This document shows positions 6,855 to 15,083 of a DNA stretch of 52,276 nt, one piece after another (the first letter of the stretch is position 1; the number at the start of each line of letters is the position of its first letter). Made by a program: the position numbers and the translations under genes. The stretch lies in the NCBI GenBank assembly GCA_011600865.1, contig GCA_011600865.1_4890.1. One strand, 5' to 3'. The notes below the pieces were generated by a model. That model had not been told where the DNA came from and did not search any database. It saw nothing but the letters and a program-made list of their open reading frames with translations. Source of the DNA: Escherichia coli (GTDB lineage Bacteria > Pseudomonadota > Gammaproteobacteria > Enterobacterales > Enterobacteriaceae).

Positions 6855-7085
6855 ATGAGCATCCAAACTATCGAACAATTTCGTTCAACACGTAAGCTTG
6901 TTGCAAAAGATAACTGCGATTTATGGACATATGGCGTTCATCATGACTGGCACATCGTCGAGTCATTTGATGAACCCACAACGTACTCCGTCTGTGGCGA
7001 GGAGTTCGACACTCTGGAAGAAGCCGAAGAAGCTCTTTACCGTATGTATTGCGATGAGGAATCACTTTACGAGGACTACCATTAA
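6855..7085 (+). CDS. Hypothetical protein
   Basis: ATG at 6855 preceded by GAGGAGAGAG; 76 aa, acidic. Confidence 0.55.
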   Translation: MSIQTIEQFRSTRKLVAKDNCDLWTYGVHHDWHIVESFDEPTTYSVCGEEFDTLEEAEEALYRMYCDEESLYEDYH

Positions 7086-7969
7086 TGGTTCAGATTGTAT
7101 CTACTAAACAAGCCGTAGAAAATAAGCGACCTAAGGTCGCTATTTACGGCGCATCAGGTGTTGGTAAAACCACCCTGGCTAAGACCTTGCCTCATGACAA
7201 GGTTCTTGTCATTAACGCCGAAGGCGGTTTGATGTCAATTGCAGACGCTGACATTGACTCTACGCCAATTAATACGTTCAACGACATTCTGGCGTTGTAC
7301 AAATGGCTTACCGAAAGTAAGGATGCGCAGAAGTATGAGCATCTGATTTTCGACTCGCTGTCAGATGTGGCTGAAGTTTGTCTGGACTATGAGAAGTCGC
7401 AGGTTAACGACAAACGACAGGCATATGGTAACACCAACGACAAGATGATGTATATCATGCGCCAGTTCCGTGACTTGCCTTTCAGCGTTGCATACCTGTG
7501 CAAGCTTGAGAAGAACAAGGACGAGGTTACTGGTGCAATGTTGTACTCACCTCTTATGCCAGGTCAGCAGCTACCTAAACAGTTGCCGTATCTTATGGAT
7601 GCGGTACTTGCTTTACGTATGACTGCACCAGACGCCAACGGCAACAGCGAACGTTATATTCAGACACAACCTGACTATCAATGGGAAGCTAAGTGTCGTA
7701 ACGCACCAGGGCGTGAACTGGATGCACGTGAGCCTGCAGATCTGGGCTGGATTTATGATAAGCTACAAGGCTATCATCCTTACCAGCTGTGGTATTACCA
7801 CCCGGAGTCAGACAGCTACCTGCTTCTGACTGGTCGAGCTGCAGAACAAATGCAGAACGACGACCCGAATGTGCAACTCACTAAAATCGGTTCAGACGAA
7901 TCGAAAGAGAAGCACCAAGCCTGGATGGCGAAGAAAGCTGCTCAAGCTGAAAAAGAATCCGGCGAATAA
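7085..7969 (+). CDS. AAA/RecA-like ATPase (Sak4-like recombination protein)
   Basis: Walker A GASGVGKTT near the N-terminus and a hydrophobic stretch ending in D (LIFDSLSD, Walker B-like); sits next to SSB-like and exonuclease genes. Confidence 0.6.
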   Translation: MVQIVSTKQAVENKRPKVAIYGASGVGKTTLAKTLPHDKVLVINAEGGLMSIADADIDSTPINTFNDILALYKWLTESKDAQKYEHLIFDSLSDVAEVCLDYEKSQVNDKRQAYGNTNDKMMYIMRQFRDLPFSVAYLCKLEKNKDEVTGAMLYSPLMPGQQLPKQLPYLMDAVLALRMTAPDANGNSERYIQTQPDYQWEAKCRNAPGRELDAREPADLGWIYDKLQGYHPYQLWYYHPESDSYLLLTGRAAEQMQNDDPNVQLTKIGSDESKEKHQAWMAKKAAQAEKESGE

Positions 7970-7974
7970 AAGTG

Positions 7975-8004
7975 TTTACGCCATGATAAAAAGTGGCGTA
8001 TAAT
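7975..8004 (+). promoter_or_regulatory. Sigma70-like promoter
   Basis: TTTACG (7975-7980), 18 nt spacer containing AAGTGGCG, TATAAT (7999-8004). Confidence 0.45.
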
Positions 8005-8076
8005 AAGCATCACGGCCGAACGCTGCCGGTAAAGCGTTAAACGAAACTAAACTAAACTTAAACAGGATACCAAACA

Positions 8077-8622
8077 ATGGCTGAATTAAACTTCAACAGC
8101 TCTACCGTCGAACCGCAACAGTCTTTTGACCCAATCCCGAAAGGCTGGTACAACTTCATGATTGAAGAGGTTGAGCTGAAGCCGACTAAAGCAGGTACCG
8201 GTTCTTATCTGTCCCTGCGTTTGAAAGTGCAGGAAGGTGAGTTCGCTAACCGTGTTGTGTTTGACATGATTACTTACTCCAACCCTAACGCACAAGCTGT
8301 TGAAATCGGTCATCGCAAACTGTCTGCATTGTGCCGTGCTCTGGGTATTGTTGAACTGACTTCTACTGGCCTGCTGGAAAACCGTATCGTAGCTGGTAAA
8401 GTAGGTATTCGCGTTGACAAGACCGGTGAGTACGACCCACAGAACGATATTCGCGAATACAAAGCGTCAACTGAAGCAACTACTGCAGTAGGTGGTCAGT
8501 CTCAAGCAACTGCATCGACGACGAAGAAAGTAGGTGCAGGTGCGGGTACTTCAACGAAGGCGAATGCTACTGCAACGGCGCCTGGTGCTGATGATGGTGA
8601 AGCAGCTCCTTGGGAAGAGTAA
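8077..8622 (+). CDS. Putative single-stranded DNA-binding protein (DUF669-like partner of Sak4)
   Basis: 181 aa with a low-complexity Ala/Thr/Gly linker and an acidic C-terminal tail (DDGEAAPWEE), as SSB tails typically are; adjacent to the Sak4-like ATPase. Confidence 0.4.
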   Translation: MAELNFNSSTVEPQQSFDPIPKGWYNFMIEEVELKPTKAGTGSYLSLRLKVQEGEFANRVVFDMITYSNPNAQAVEIGHRKLSALCRALGIVELTSTGLLENRIVAGKVGIRVDKTGEYDPQNDIREYKASTEATTAVGGQSQATASTTKKVGAGAGTSTKANATATAPGADDGEAAPWEE

Positions 8623-8644
8623 TCCCTGCCGAGTAGATATTCAA

Positions 8645-8668
8645 TAGGGGCTTCGGCCCCTATTTTCG
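8645..8668 (+). terminator. Intrinsic terminator
   Basis: taggggc / gccccta stem with a ttcg tetraloop, followed by ttttcg. Confidence 0.55.
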
Positions 8669-8683
8669 TATACGGAGACTACC

Positions 8684-9169
8684 ATGCAAAAGAAGAAGAT
8701 GGACAAGTGGGACAAGCGCTTTATGCGCATAGCTTGTGAAGTTGCAAGCTGGTCTAAGGACCCGAAACGCCAAGTTGGTAGCGTTCTTGTAGACCAGAAC
8801 AAGCGTATTATTTCCACTGGATATAACGGCTTACCTACGCAGTTAGACTCTATAAGAATAGTGCCTAATAGCCTCAAGAACGCTCTAACTATTCATAGCG
8901 AGATAAACACCTTAGCTAATATAAGGAGTGAGTTAGACACTCCTTCTTTAGGCCCGGTTACCATCTACATAACCTACCCGCCGTGCGAACATTGTGCTGA
9001 CATGCTGATAGCCAACCTTAGCCTGGTACGTGTAGTTGCATTGGCACATACAGCTTCACAGTCCAAGTGGAAAGAGAGCATGGCAAATGCCGTCGCTCAT
9101 TTGTGGGCCCATAATATTGTATACGACGAATTCAGCATTGAGGAGTTTAATAATGCCCAGTCCGTTTGA
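8684..9169 (+). CDS. Deoxycytidylate (dCMP) deaminase
   Basis: CDA-fold zinc motifs HSE (HxE) and PCEHCA (PCxxC), plus the dCMP-deaminase-type N-terminal region VGSVLVDQNKRIISTGYNGLP. Confidence 0.85.
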   Translation: MQKKKMDKWDKRFMRIACEVASWSKDPKRQVGSVLVDQNKRIISTGYNGLPTQLDSIRIVPNSLKNALTIHSEINTLANIRSELDTPSLGPVTIYITYPPCEHCADMLIANLSLVRVVALAHTASQSKWKESMANAVAHLWAHNIVYDEFSIEEFNNAQSV

Positions 9170-10031
9170 CGACCTACAGAAGCGTATTGATGTCAAGATA
9201 GTCGAAGCCCACGAAAGAGAAGAACGACGCGGGCATCTTGGAGCATCACAGATAGGACACAACTGCTATCGCTATCTTTGGCACGTACTGCACTGGTCGT
9301 ACAAGGAGAAGTTTACCGCGAAGCAACTTCGTCTGTTTGAACGTGGTAACCTTGAAGAAAGCAGAATTGTGAAGTGGCTTCGTTCCGTATGTGATGAAGT
9401 GCTGGACGTCAACCCTAAAACAGGTAAGCAGTGGCGCATACACGATTTCAATGACATCTTCTCTGGGTCTTGTGACTGTGTAATCAAATACAAAGGCGTA
9501 TGGGCACTTGCTGAATTCAAAACGCATGGTGATAAGTCGTTTAAAGAACTAATCAAGCTCAAGTCTGTTAAGGCCAGCAAGCCGGTGCATTATGCTCAGA
9601 TGCAGGTATACATGCGGAAGCTTAAGCTGAATCAAGCCGTGTACATTGCAATCAATAAGAACACCGATGAGATGTATTTTGAAGTGGTCGAGATTGACTT
9701 ACTGGAAAGTGACATACAACTAAGTAAAGCAGAGGCTGTCGTATATGCGGAATCTGGTTTGGATATGCCGAAGATTTCTGAGTCGCCTATTTGGTGGGAG
9801 TGCAAGCCCGGAATGTGCGAGTACCACCACTTGTGCCACAAAGGAGCAATGCCCGACAGGAACTGCAGAACCTGCCATTACAGTAAACCGCTTCAGGGCA
9901 AAGTGTGGTATTGTAACAAGCACCAGAAAGAGCTCGAAACAATCGAAGAGCAATTAGCAGCTTGTGATGATTATCGCCCTGCTGATGTCTTCCCGCAGGA
10001 TGAGAAGCCCGTTAAACTTTCCTTAAAATAA
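9153..10031 (+). CDS. PD-(D/E)XK recombination exonuclease (YqaJ/lambda-exo-like) with a C-terminal Cys-rich domain
   Basis: Start refined to the ATG at 9153 (GAGGAG RBS; overlaps the deaminase stop). GASQIG motif, acidic/lysine core around ALAEFKT and a QMQ motif; seven Cys and several His in the last 60 residues. Confidence 0.65.
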   Translation: MPSPFDDLQKRIDVKIVEAHEREERRGHLGASQIGHNCYRYLWHVLHWSYKEKFTAKQLRLFERGNLEESRIVKWLRSVCDEVLDVNPKTGKQWRIHDFNDIFSGSCDCVIKYKGVWALAEFKTHGDKSFKELIKLKSVKASKPVHYAQMQVYMRKLKLNQAVYIAINKNTDEMYFEVVEIDLLESDIQLSKAEAVVYAESGLDMPKISESPIWWECKPGMCEYHHLCHKGAMPDRNCRTCHYSKPLQGKVWYCNKHQKELETIEEQLAACDDYRPADVFPQDEKPVKLSLK

Positions 10032-10089: not shown

Positions 10090-11760
10090 ATGGCTTTTGA
10101 AGCTCGCTGGTATCAACAAGAAGCGGTCACGGCTTGGTGGTCGTACTTCAATTCTTATAGTGGTAATCCACTTATTGTCATGCCAACAGGTTCAGGTAAA
10201 TCACCTGTGCTTGGTATGTTGATGAAGGATATTCTTACCAGCTATCCCCGTCAGCGCATTCTTATATTGACACACGTCAAGGAGCTGGTAGAACAAGACG
10301 CCAGAGCGATTGTTCGCCACTGGCCACAAGCACCAGTATCAATCTACTCTTCAGGCGCAGGACACAAAGACTTTTCAGGTCGTATCGTTGTAGCGTCAGT
10401 ACAGTCGATTATTAAGAACCTGGAAGAAGCAGGTAAGTTCAATCTTATATTCATTGACGAAGCCCATCTCGTTCCTGAGAAGTCTGAAACAACATACCGT
10501 AAGGTTATTGCTCATTTCAAAGAGCTTAATCCTAAGGTAAAGGTAACAGGTCTTACAGCAACTCCGTACCGCCTGGCAGGTGGTCACTTACTTGACTGCG
10601 GTATATTTACCGACATCTGCTATGACCTTACAACACCTGACGCATTCACCAGACTGGTAAATGAAGGCTTCCTGTCTCGCCTGGTCAACAAGAAAGTGTT
10701 AACCAAGATTGACACCAGCAATGTTGGCGAAAGGATGGGTGACTACATACCGTCAGAGCTTGAGAAGGTAGCCAACCAACACAGCATAACAGTTGCGGCC
10801 ATCAGGGAGATGATGCACTACGGTAAAGACAGGAGTCACGTCCTTGTATTCGCCACAAGTGTTGAACACGCCCACAACGTGGCTGACGAGTTTAATTTAC
10901 GCGGATGGCAAACTGTTGTTGTACACGGCGGTCTTACAAAGAAAGAACGTGAAGCGACACTGGAAGAGTTTACAAGCGGACGAGCACGGGTATGTGTAAA
11001 CGTAAACGTACTTACAACAGGATTTGACTATCCTGAAATTGATATGCTCGGTATCTTGCGCCCGTCCACGTCTGTTGCTTTGTGGGTGCAGATACTCGGC
11101 CGAGGATTACGTACAGCGCCTGGTAAGCATGACTGTCTTGTCATGGACTTTACATCTAATACCATTGACCTTGGTCCTATCGACGACCCGGCAGTTCCGC
11201 CACGTCTTGGTAAGAAGAAAAAGAAACGGTCAGAGAAAACACCTGGTGGTAAAGAGTGCCCTGTCTGCCACCAGGTAAGTGGTTATGCCGCCCGTACATG
11301 TAAGCATCCGGCTAAAGGAAGTACGCCGGACGAGAATGGTGTATATCCGATGTGCGGTCATGAATTTGAGTTTACAGTTAACGGACCTGCTATTGCCTTC
11401 ACTTCATCAGAAGAAGAGGTAATGACCAACGGTCAGCTTCGTGTTGTGGATAAGGATGTTACGCTGGTAAACTATTCTTTATTCCAGAAGCAGGGACGGC
11501 CTGACAGTATAAAGGTTGTGTACTACTCAAACCTGGAAGTGTATACAACATGGGTAAATATAGAGGCCCATGGTAATGCTAAGCAAATGGCAGATGCCTG
11601 GTGGCGTAATGCTGCAGGAACCGAACCGCCTGAAACATGCGACGAGTTTATTCGCCGTAAGGGTGAGCTGGCTATTCCTAAGCGCATAAAGGTATGGATT
11701 AAACGACCTTACCCACAAATCATGAACTACGATTGGGGGAATGGCTATGGCGCTCGATGA
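10090..11760 (+). CDS. Superfamily 2 DEAH-box DNA helicase with a C-terminal zinc-ribbon-like domain
   Basis: Walker A PTGSGKS and motif II FIDEAH; C-terminal region has Cys/His pairs (CPVCHQ, CKHP, MCGHE). Confidence 0.85.
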   Translation: MAFEARWYQQEAVTAWWSYFNSYSGNPLIVMPTGSGKSPVLGMLMKDILTSYPRQRILILTHVKELVEQDARAIVRHWPQAPVSIYSSGAGHKDFSGRIVVASVQSIIKNLEEAGKFNLIFIDEAHLVPEKSETTYRKVIAHFKELNPKVKVTGLTATPYRLAGGHLLDCGIFTDICYDLTTPDAFTRLVNEGFLSRLVNKKVLTKIDTSNVGERMGDYIPSELEKVANQHSITVAAIREMMHYGKDRSHVLVFATSVEHAHNVADEFNLRGWQTVVVHGGLTKKEREATLEEFTSGRARVCVNVNVLTTGFDYPEIDMLGILRPSTSVALWVQILGRGLRTAPGKHDCLVMDFTSNTIDLGPIDDPAVPPRLGKKKKKRSEKTPGGKECPVCHQVSGYAARTCKHPAKGSTPDENGVYPMCGHEFEFTVNGPAIAFTSSEEEVMTNGQLRVVDKDVTLVNYSLFQKQGRPDSIKVVYYSNLEVYTTWVNIEAHGNAKQMADAWWRNAAGTEPPETCDEFIRRKGELAIPKRIKVWIKRPYPQIMNYDWGNGYGAR

Positions 11761-13220: not shown

Positions 13221-13619
13221 ATGAATCTACAACGTGTCGCTGAAGCTTATTATAGAATTTGGGTACTTCGTCTTGAAGGTCAAATTGACTACGTAAACAC
13301 TGTCGGTCGTGAAGACTACCTGCCTGCATCCTCTTTCCATGAGGTATGCAACCTTGCTCAAACACTCGAGCATGAATTTGATAAGGTTAAATTTACACGC
13401 GAAGCGCAAAATAACTTTATCAAATTTGAAACAACCATGCGTTGCAAGTTCCCGTTTATCAAGCGTATATCTCGTACCGGCCTTTTCATTGTCCCCTTTC
13501 CTGTGGGTAAAGACCGTTGGGACGTATTAGAGAAGGCCCGACATATAATCTGGTCTACTGAAACAAAACGTAAGTTTATCGAAACTGTTTGTAAGGAGTT
13601 AAGAAATGCGATTCAGTAA
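13221..13619 (+). CDS. Hypothetical protein
   Basis: 132 aa ORF with GGAGAG RBS; overlaps the start of the next gene. Confidence 0.6.
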   Translation: MNLQRVAEAYYRIWVLRLEGQIDYVNTVGREDYLPASSFHEVCNLAQTLEHEFDKVKFTREAQNNFIKFETTMRCKFPFIKRISRTGLFIVPFPVGKDRWDVLEKARHIIWSTETKRKFIETVCKELRNAIQ

Positions 13620-14199
13620 AATTGCTGCAGGTGTTACAGCTTTCCACGAGAAGTTTGACCTCAAGCCAATTAGCCAAGGTGGTAAGCCAGAGTTCAAACT
13701 TCGTTATGACCGTCTTATTGAAGAGATGGATGAAATTAAACAAGCTAAGAAGGAAGGCGATAAAGCTGGATTCTTAGACGGTATTGTAGACTTAATCTAT
13801 ATTGCTGCAGGTACGTTATACCTGTATGACCAGACAGCATGGTTCACCAACGAATTTGAGTATCCGATTCTGTTGACTACGCCCTGCGGATTTATGGACC
13901 GCTTTGACGCTGAAGGTCTTATCGTGTATGTTAAGGATACCGAAGACACTCATTGCGATCGTTTGGCGCAGTTAATTATCCACCTGATTACCTGGTGTGC
14001 AAACAACAACTGGCCACTTGACGACGCATGGGATGCGGTACAGGCCGCTAACATGGCGAAAGAACGCGCCAAGCCTGATGCAAGCAATAGTAAGCATAAG
14101 TCTGGTCAGGATATTGTTAAGCCTGAAGGATGGAAAGCACCTGATATTCAGGCAATCATCGACGCACACGTTAACCCGGCCCAAAAGGAACTGTTTTAA
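13606..14199 (+). CDS. MazG-like nucleoside triphosphate pyrophosphohydrolase
   Basis: 197 aa; acidic metal-binding type motifs EEMDE and DGIVDL typical of all-alpha MazG/HisE-like NTP pyrophosphatases; stop overlaps the start of the thymidylate-synthase-fold gene. Confidence 0.6.
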   Translation: MRFSKIAAGVTAFHEKFDLKPISQGGKPEFKLRYDRLIEEMDEIKQAKKEGDKAGFLDGIVDLIYIAAGTLYLYDQTAWFTNEFEYPILLTTPCGFMDRFDAEGLIVYVKDTEDTHCDRLAQLIIHLITWCANNNWPLDDAWDAVQAANMAKERAKPDASNSKHKSGQDIVKPEGWKAPDIQAIIDAHVNPAQKELF

Positions 14200-15083
14200 T
14201 GAAAACATACAGCACTGTCGATTCTCTTTACAGCGACATCATTTCGTTTATCCTGCGTAAGGGTGAAGATGTCGAAGACCGTACAGGTGTTGGTACACGC
14301 CGTTGTTTTGGTACAGCGTTTAAGCTGGCTTTCAAGGACAACAAACTGATGGTGCCGGTATTTAAACCTGTTAACATCAAAGCTGTTGCTGCTGAGCTTT
14401 ATTGCTTTATTAACGGCATTTCAAATGTCGATACACTCAAAGGTTTTGGCTGCAACTGGTGGGAAGGTAATCTGCAAGATGCAAACAAACGTTGGGGTAC
14501 ACCAGACAACCGTGATTTAGGGCCTGTGTACGGCGTGCAGTGGGTTAAGCCATTCTATAAGAATGGTGTTCTCACTAACCAGCTTAAAGATGTTATTGAA
14601 ACGCTGAAGGTTAAACCTACCGACCGCCGGGCATACATTACGGCATGGAACCCACAAGAGATGGACGCCATGGCCCTTCCGCCTTGCTACCATGGTTTTC
14701 AGCTGTTCATTAACAACCGTAATGAATTAGAGCTGATGTTCCATATGCGTAGCGCGGATGTTATTCTGGGTCTGCCTCATGACATTCTGCTACATCAGAT
14801 GTTGCAGATTACCATCGCAGCAGAGCTGGGTGTTGGGGTAGGGGATATGACTGTAACCTTGGGTGATTATCATATCTATAAGAACCATATCGACGCTGCC
14901 AAGATTTTCTTACAGCGCATCGTGAGCAATACAGACACCACGCTGGACACTAACTTTGAAGGCCGTCCTGACATTAACGCGATTTACGACGTGTCAGTAT
15001 TTGACTTCACTCCTGCCGCTGTTACGCCAATGGTTGAGAAGTACAAGCCAATGCCAAACATCAAACTCCAAATGGCCGTATAA
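14199..15083 (+). CDS. Thymidylate synthase family enzyme; specificity residue suggests a dCMP C5-hydroxymethylase or dCMP methylase rather than canonical ThyA
   Basis: 294 aa with ThyA hallmarks DRTGVGT, DLGPVYGVQW, YITAWNP, catalytic Cys163 in PPCYH (TGC 14685-14687) and GDYHIYKNH. The residue aligning with E. coli ThyA Asn177 (GLPFN) is Asp195 (GLPHD, GAC 14781-14783). Alignment done by eye against ThyA recalled from memory. Confidence 0.8.
   Translation: MKTYSTVDSLYSDIISFILRKGEDVEDRTGVGTRRCFGTAFKLAFKDNKLMVPVFKPVNIKAVAAELYCFINGISNVDTLKGFGCNWWEGNLQDANKRWGTPDNRDLGPVYGVQWVKPFYKNGVLTNQLKDVIETLKVKPTDRRAYITAWNPQEMDAMALPPCYHGFQLFINNRNELELMFHMRSADVILGLPHDILLHQMLQITIAAELGVGVGDMTVTLGDYHIYKNHIDAAKIFLQRIVSNTDTTLDTNFEGRPDINAIYDVSVFDFTPAAVTPMVEKYKPMPNIKLQMAV

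Follow-up and report, generated by a model that had tools for sequence, protein, structure and literature searches.

The locus at positions 7085–10031 of the window (the whole 52,276-nucleotide stretch of DNA analysed here) raises two questions: whether its genes make up a phage recombination set, and what the cysteine-rich C-terminus of the encoded exonuclease represents. The window holds a Rosemountvirus-type Salmonella/E. coli phage with 97.8% identity to phage yarpen, and we identify the region as the recombination cassette of this phage type, devoted to recombination-dependent replication and repair. The gene set is a known and already annotated phage DNA-recombination module, while the architecture of its nuclease is modestly novel. 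Our main reading, to which we assign a probability of about 0.75, joins this cassette identity to a Cas4-like nuclease with a canonical four-cysteine site and a separate second metal-binding module. All four reading frames (Sak4-like, SSB, deaminase and nuclease) were found on the plus strand, and their coordinates are collected in Table 1.

Table 1. Features of the cassette and of its nuclease, in window coordinates.
Feature	Position	Strand	Basis
Sak4-like RecA-core ATPase / single-strand annealing protein, 294 aa	7085..7969	+	Pfam AAA_24, phrog_124, Walker A
DUF669-type phage SSB, 181 aa	8077..8622	+	Pfam DUF669, phrog_2300, phrog_6015, tail composition
dCMP deaminase, 161 aa	8684..9169	+	Pfam dCMP_cyt_deam_1, phrog_174, zinc motifs
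Shine-Dalgarno GAGGAG, 7 nt upstream of nuclease ATG 9153	9140..9145	+	direct sequence reading
Cas4-like PD-(D/E)XK exonuclease, 292 aa + stop	9153..10031	+	phrog_1990, AF2 model, Foldseek
C38, predicted N-terminal ligand of canonical Cas4/AddB-type Fe-S staple	9264..9266	+	100% conserved (121 sequences), in motif GASxIGxxCxRxLW
Catalytic core: D108 (9474–9476), E121-x-K123 (9513–9521), Q149xxxY153 (9597–9611)	9474..9611	+	conservation, codon check
C217-x4-C222-x5-C228, three predicted C-terminal ligands of canonical cluster	9801..9836	+	100% conserved; profile alignment to Cas4 SSO0001
Second four-Cys site C238-x2-C241-x12-C254-x16-C271 (NCRTC...W252xC...Q267xxxC)	9864..9965	+	core of predicted HiPIP-like module
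Disordered C-terminal tail, residues 279–292, ends ...KPVKLSLK	9987..10028	+	pLDDT 60 and 46 in last two model blocks
RadD-like SF2 helicase, 556 aa, fourth conserved cassette member	10090..11760	+	Pfam ResIII, Helicase_C, DEAD; NCBIfam

The first gene encodes a protein that matches Pfam AAA_24 well above the curated cut-off (9.7e-29; 101 bits against a cut-off of 27) and the PHROGs family of Sak4-like ssDNA annealing proteins, phrog_124, over residues 3–231 (1.3e-51). Its Walker A motif, GASGVGKT, occupies residues 22–29, its recognisable domain is a RecA core only, and a C-terminal extension of about 60 residues continues past the family profile. The ATPase gene is likewise annotated as Sak4-like in NC_048863. 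Roughly 80% of sak4 genes have a cognate ssb gene next to them (PMC5928155), and here a DUF669 gene begins 107 nt downstream. Among Sak4 proteins, ATP-dependent single-strand annealing is established for those of HK620 and PA73 alone, so that this activity is putative for the window protein by analogy: the PA73 protein, which has an exonuclease as its partner, is active in annealing in vivo (PMC2896510, PMC3483164), and that of HK620 depends on the six C-terminal residues of the cognate DUF669 SSB (PMC5928155).

In HK620, Sak4 has a DUF669 protein as its SSB partner (PMC5928155), and the second gene of the cassette encodes such a protein. It exceeds the Pfam DUF669 cut-off of 21 bits (1.6e-13, 51 bits) and matches phrog_2300 (7e-58) and phrog_6015, 'single strand DNA binding protein' (8.4e-37). 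An OB-like N-terminal part is followed by an Ala/Thr/Gly-rich linker and an acidic tail ending in DDGEAAPWEE; the last 13 residues, PGADDGEAAPWEE, include five acidic and no basic ones, in agreement with the acidic-tailed SSB-like protein described in the earlier note. The aromatic residue of this tail is W rather than the PPF/IPF of HK620 or E. coli, and P-x-W is present in the SSBs of cassette relatives.

Synteny, observed directly, extends this assignment beyond the window. In 50 viral-contig relatives the sequence reaches 3 kb or more upstream of the nuclease; all of these (50/50) have a Sak4 gene there and 42/50 a DUF669 gene. An SF2 helicase follows the nuclease in 43 of 59 relatives and is absent from that place in the remaining 16. 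The corresponding window protein scores 3.1e-86 against NCBIfam RadD/YejH, a value under the curated cut-off of that model, and nuclease and helicase reading frames overlap in 27 relatives. The same gene order occurs in PA73-like Kakheti25, CAjan, a Psychrobacter prophage and metagenomic phages. Hence the recombination set proposed earlier (Sak4-like, SSB and exonuclease) was confirmed and proved to be conserved among relatives; in order and type of genes it matches PA73/Kakheti25, CAjan and many prophage cassettes that comprise a Sak4-like annealase, a DUF669 SSB, a Cas4-like exonuclease and a RadD-like SF2 helicase. The dCMP deaminase (Pfam dCMP_cyt_deam_1, 2.4e-21, 76 bits; phrog_174, 2.1e-36), with its zinc motifs HxE at residue 71 and PCxxC at residue 100, had been described as inserted between the SSB-like and exonuclease genes. 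This description holds: because no deaminase gene lies 6 kb or less from the nuclease in any of 80 relatives (0/80), we regard the gene as a lineage-specific insertion.

The nuclease gene overlaps the deaminase gene by 17 nt. TTG 9036, the start of the longest reading frame, was rejected as its start codon, since ATG 9153 is preceded by the ribosome-binding sequence listed in Table 1 and agrees with both the RefSeq CDS of phage yarpen and a 292-residue database protein. The product is 100% identical to a protein of Salmonella phage rivia. It matches phrog_1990 over practically the full-length profile (6.7e-101, positions 11–288 of 290, both Cys sites included), and RefSeq and PHROGs both label it 'Cas4-domain exonuclease'. 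One GenBank record calls it 'YqaJ-like', and a homolog appears in one source as 'ribosomal protein S27E'. Searches of Pfam and NCBIfam returned nothing above threshold for the nuclease, and we found no biochemistry on any member of its subfamily in the searchable literature.

The predicted structure of the nuclease (AF2 pLDDT 94.8, pTM 0.89) is most similar to Cas4. The top Foldseek matches are SSO0001 (4ic1, E 6e-7) and Pcal_0546 (4r5q, E 1.6e-6), both with a probability of 1.00 and both ahead of lambda exonuclease; the fold of the model is thus Cas4-like, albeit with TM-scores of only 0.45 and 0.59 for 4ic1 and 4r5q, respectively. The PD-(D/E)XK residues D108, E121, K123, Q149 and Y153 are 98–100% conserved across 121 sequences, down to 27% identity. 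Pfam searches with 33 homologs gave matches to PDDEXK_1 in 22 (best 7.8e-7), weak ones to Cas_Cas4 in 8 (best 1.1e-4) and to Exo5 in 4. These results favour the earlier suggestion of a Cas4/AddB-type enzyme rather than a plain lambda-exo-like one.

The cysteine-rich C-terminus falls into three parts: a canonical site, an extra module and a short disordered tail with a conserved linear motif. The seven C-terminal cysteines (217, 222, 228, 238, 241, 254 and 271), exactly those quoted in the earlier note, are 98–100% conserved in the 121 sequences, down to 27% identity, and are kept in all but three of 80 viral-contig relatives (77/80), these three being truncated. Loss of the region in homologs had been set beforehand as the refuting outcome, and the alignment clearly gives the opposite result. 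The earlier note missed an eighth conserved cysteine, the N-terminal C38. Together with C217, C222 and C228, each 100% conserved, C38 reproduces the Cas4 arrangement of one N-terminal Cys and a C-terminal CX2CX5C, and the profile aligns the CxxCx5C of the nuclease with the C-terminal cluster motif of SSO0001 (4ic1), at which that protein ends. The family norm at this site is CxxCx5C; in the lineage of the window a two-residue 'PG' insert (6/121 sequences) makes it CX4CX5C. From these sequence motifs we predict that the four residues form the canonical Cas4/AddB-type Fe-S staple, by which the nuclease domain would have its C-terminal end pinned to the N-terminal helix. The C-terminal histidines, also highlighted earlier, are irrelevant: H225 (24%), H226 (7%), H242 (5%) and H257 (33%) are poorly conserved, and only H229 (84%) is an exception. 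Nor is the architecture 'unusual', as had been supposed, being the norm of a family that already carries a Cas4-domain label. The proposed extension of roughly 60 residues with seven cysteines is correct insofar as residues ~229–292 exceed canonical Cas4, but its first three cysteines lie inside the Cas4 domain. Likewise, the single zinc or iron-sulfur domain envisaged there does contain a Cas4/AddB-type cluster motif, but it resolves into two separate Cys sites, the canonical one of which needs C38. In the tail, the pattern hydrophobic-x-hydrophobic-[S/N]-L is retained in relatives to about 45% identity (tails of P0001–P0017).

The second four-Cys site lies in a module of about 49 residues (230–278; window 9840–9986) that is absent from SSO0001. 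Its consensus is NCRTC...WxC...GC, with a modal family spacing of x2/x11–12/x15, and it conforms to the CX2CXnCXnC motif by which HiPIP-like [4Fe-4S] binders are defined (PMC12358834). The structural matches of the module all belong to one fold class, the HiPIP-like binder set of that study; the similarity to HiPIP, HPAD gamma and BSS beta was found with a predicted 49-residue structure and at a Foldseek E-value of 0.58. At the sequence level, hhalign detected no similarity to a HiPIP sequence (probability 0.5%, E 0.11), a PDB profile search yielded chance matches only, and there was no match to Pfam HIPIP. The module is thus predicted, on the strength of its modelled structure, to adopt a HiPIP-like fold, and we infer that a second [4Fe-4S] cluster is its most likely cofactor, although we favour this metal only slightly. 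The cysteines could instead hold zinc in a structural Zn(Cys)4 site, with a knuckle of zinc-ribbon or treble-clef-like type for binding DNA or a partner. We consider this possible but clearly less likely: CxxC knuckles are typical of zinc sites, the S27E label of one homolog points the same way, and homologs give weak Pfam matches to Zn_ribbon_RPB9 (5/33, best E 0.013), zf-POGZ, Zn_ribbon_Elf1, Zn_ribbon_15 and ZZ, but all these zinc-ribbon matches fall far under curated thresholds, and the module has a single CxxC knuckle followed, after 12 and a further 16 residues, by two lone cysteines, in keeping with the HiPIP-like motif and not with two knuckles.

The module occurs in at least 1556 clusters at 50% identity; of the best 148 of these, 140 include the nuclease domain, and short fragments account for the remaining 8. 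The nuclease family is found in at least 411 sequenced phages, including PA73-like phages, Seuratvirus and Rosemountvirus. In the literature searched we found no description of a two-Fe-S-cluster architecture for a PD-(D/E)XK nuclease, and the second module is apparently undescribed, though common to the whole of this widespread family. Whether the family constitutes phage and prophage recombination exonucleases with two Fe-S clusters, one the canonical Cas4/AddB staple and the other a [4Fe-4S] held by a fused HiPIP-like domain, is in our estimate evenly balanced. If it does, the second cluster could give the co-encoded helicase a scaffold for docking or DNA binding, or could switch end resection in response to redox state.

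By analogy with known systems, the PD-(D/E)XK nuclease (D108/E121/K123) would resect the 5' strand at DNA ends, the adjacent helicase possibly feeding it or forming a complex with it. The remaining 3' single strand would be coated by the DUF669 SSB, whose acidic aromatic tail would recruit Sak4, and Sak4 would then anneal the strand to a complementary one. The 5'-to-3' polarity and the Cas4-like Fe-S cluster are putative, and we infer these and the partner contacts, including that with the helicase, from such comparisons.

A different role, that the nuclease chiefly degrades DNA with the adjacent helicase and so supplies nucleotides for phage synthesis, would suit a phage of a lytic genus that has a dCMP deaminase within the cassette and a MazG-like nucleotide pyrophosphohydrolase and thymidylate synthase downstream (13606–15083), and the overlap of nuclease and helicase frames in many relatives recalls helicase-nuclease machines. 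We consider it unlikely: the linkage to Sak4 is found in 50/50 relatives and extends to temperate prophages with a CI repressor and integrase, and since the 80 relatives have no deaminase near the nuclease, the link to nucleotide metabolism is a local accident. It is more improbable still that the nuclease is a phage Cas4 acting on host CRISPR adaptation or otherwise countering defence. Its fold and cluster motif, and the precedent of a Campylobacter phage Cas4-like protein (PMC4283603, PMC5704561), speak for such a role; yet it matches no PADLOC defence model and has no significant match to Pfam Cas_Cas4 (PF01930 / COG1468), its invariant context is Sak4, SSB and helicase within a replication module, and its homologs occur in phages of many hosts, whatever their CRISPR type. 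Finally, a plain lambda-Exo/YqaJ/RecE-type exonuclease with incidental cysteines, suggested by structural matches that include lambda exonuclease, LHK-Exo and RecE (E 3e-6 to 5e-4), by the 'YqaJ-like' record and by weak YqaJ matches in 7/33 homologs (best 0.0023), is effectively refuted by eight cysteines that are invariant in the 121 sequences and at 77/80 loci, by the first rank of Cas4 structures and alignment with Cas4 cluster ligands, and by the lack of any match of the window nuclease itself to YqaJ (PF09588).

Among the systems closest to the recombination cassette and its Cas4-like nuclease is the Sak4 and exonuclease module of the PA73/KL1/Kakheti25 type (Lopes et al. 2010, PMC2896510; Lynch et al. 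2012, PMC3483164). The nucleases are homologous (29% identity over residues 8–276, both Cys sites), and Kakheti25 has the order Sak4, DUF669, exonuclease and DEAD-box helicase, then clamp and DNA polymerase. Unlike these phages, that of the window is a myovirus of Enterobacteria and has a deaminase between SSB and nuclease, and the Kakheti25 nuclease differs by a 47-residue insertion and an N-terminal extension. In HK620 (Hutinet et al. 2018, PMC5928155), Sak4-like and DUF669 SSB genes also adjoin and the acidic SSB tail contains an aromatic residue, but the tail reads NDYPPF as opposed to AAPWEE, and Abc2 hijacks RecBCD in place of a nuclease encoded by the phage. With Cas4 SSO0001/Pcal_0546 and the 'iron-staple' domains of AddB, Dna2 and Exo5, the nuclease shares a RecB-like PD-(D/E)XK core with D...ExK and QxxxY, and one N-terminal and three C-terminal cysteines (CxxCx5C); in contrast to Cas4 it lacks a CRISPR context and has the longer CX4CX5C spacing, and it is ~90 residues longer than SSO0001, with the four-Cys HiPIP-like module and the tail added past the end of the latter. 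Lambda Red-alpha, RecE and YqaJ have the superfamily fold and presumed 5'-to-3' resection for an annealase in common with it, but they lack Cys clusters, partner with Rad52-like annealases and are less similar to the window nuclease than Cas4 is. As for the second module, its counterparts are HiPIP and the HiPIP-like accessory subunits of glycyl radical enzymes (HPAD gamma, 2y8n_B; BSS beta, 4pkf_B/9pzj_E; MASS beta/gamma, 9o8u), which show no detectable sequence similarity to it; whereas those proteins are free electron carriers or enzyme subunits, here a module with a putative metal site forms the C-terminal domain of a DNA nuclease.

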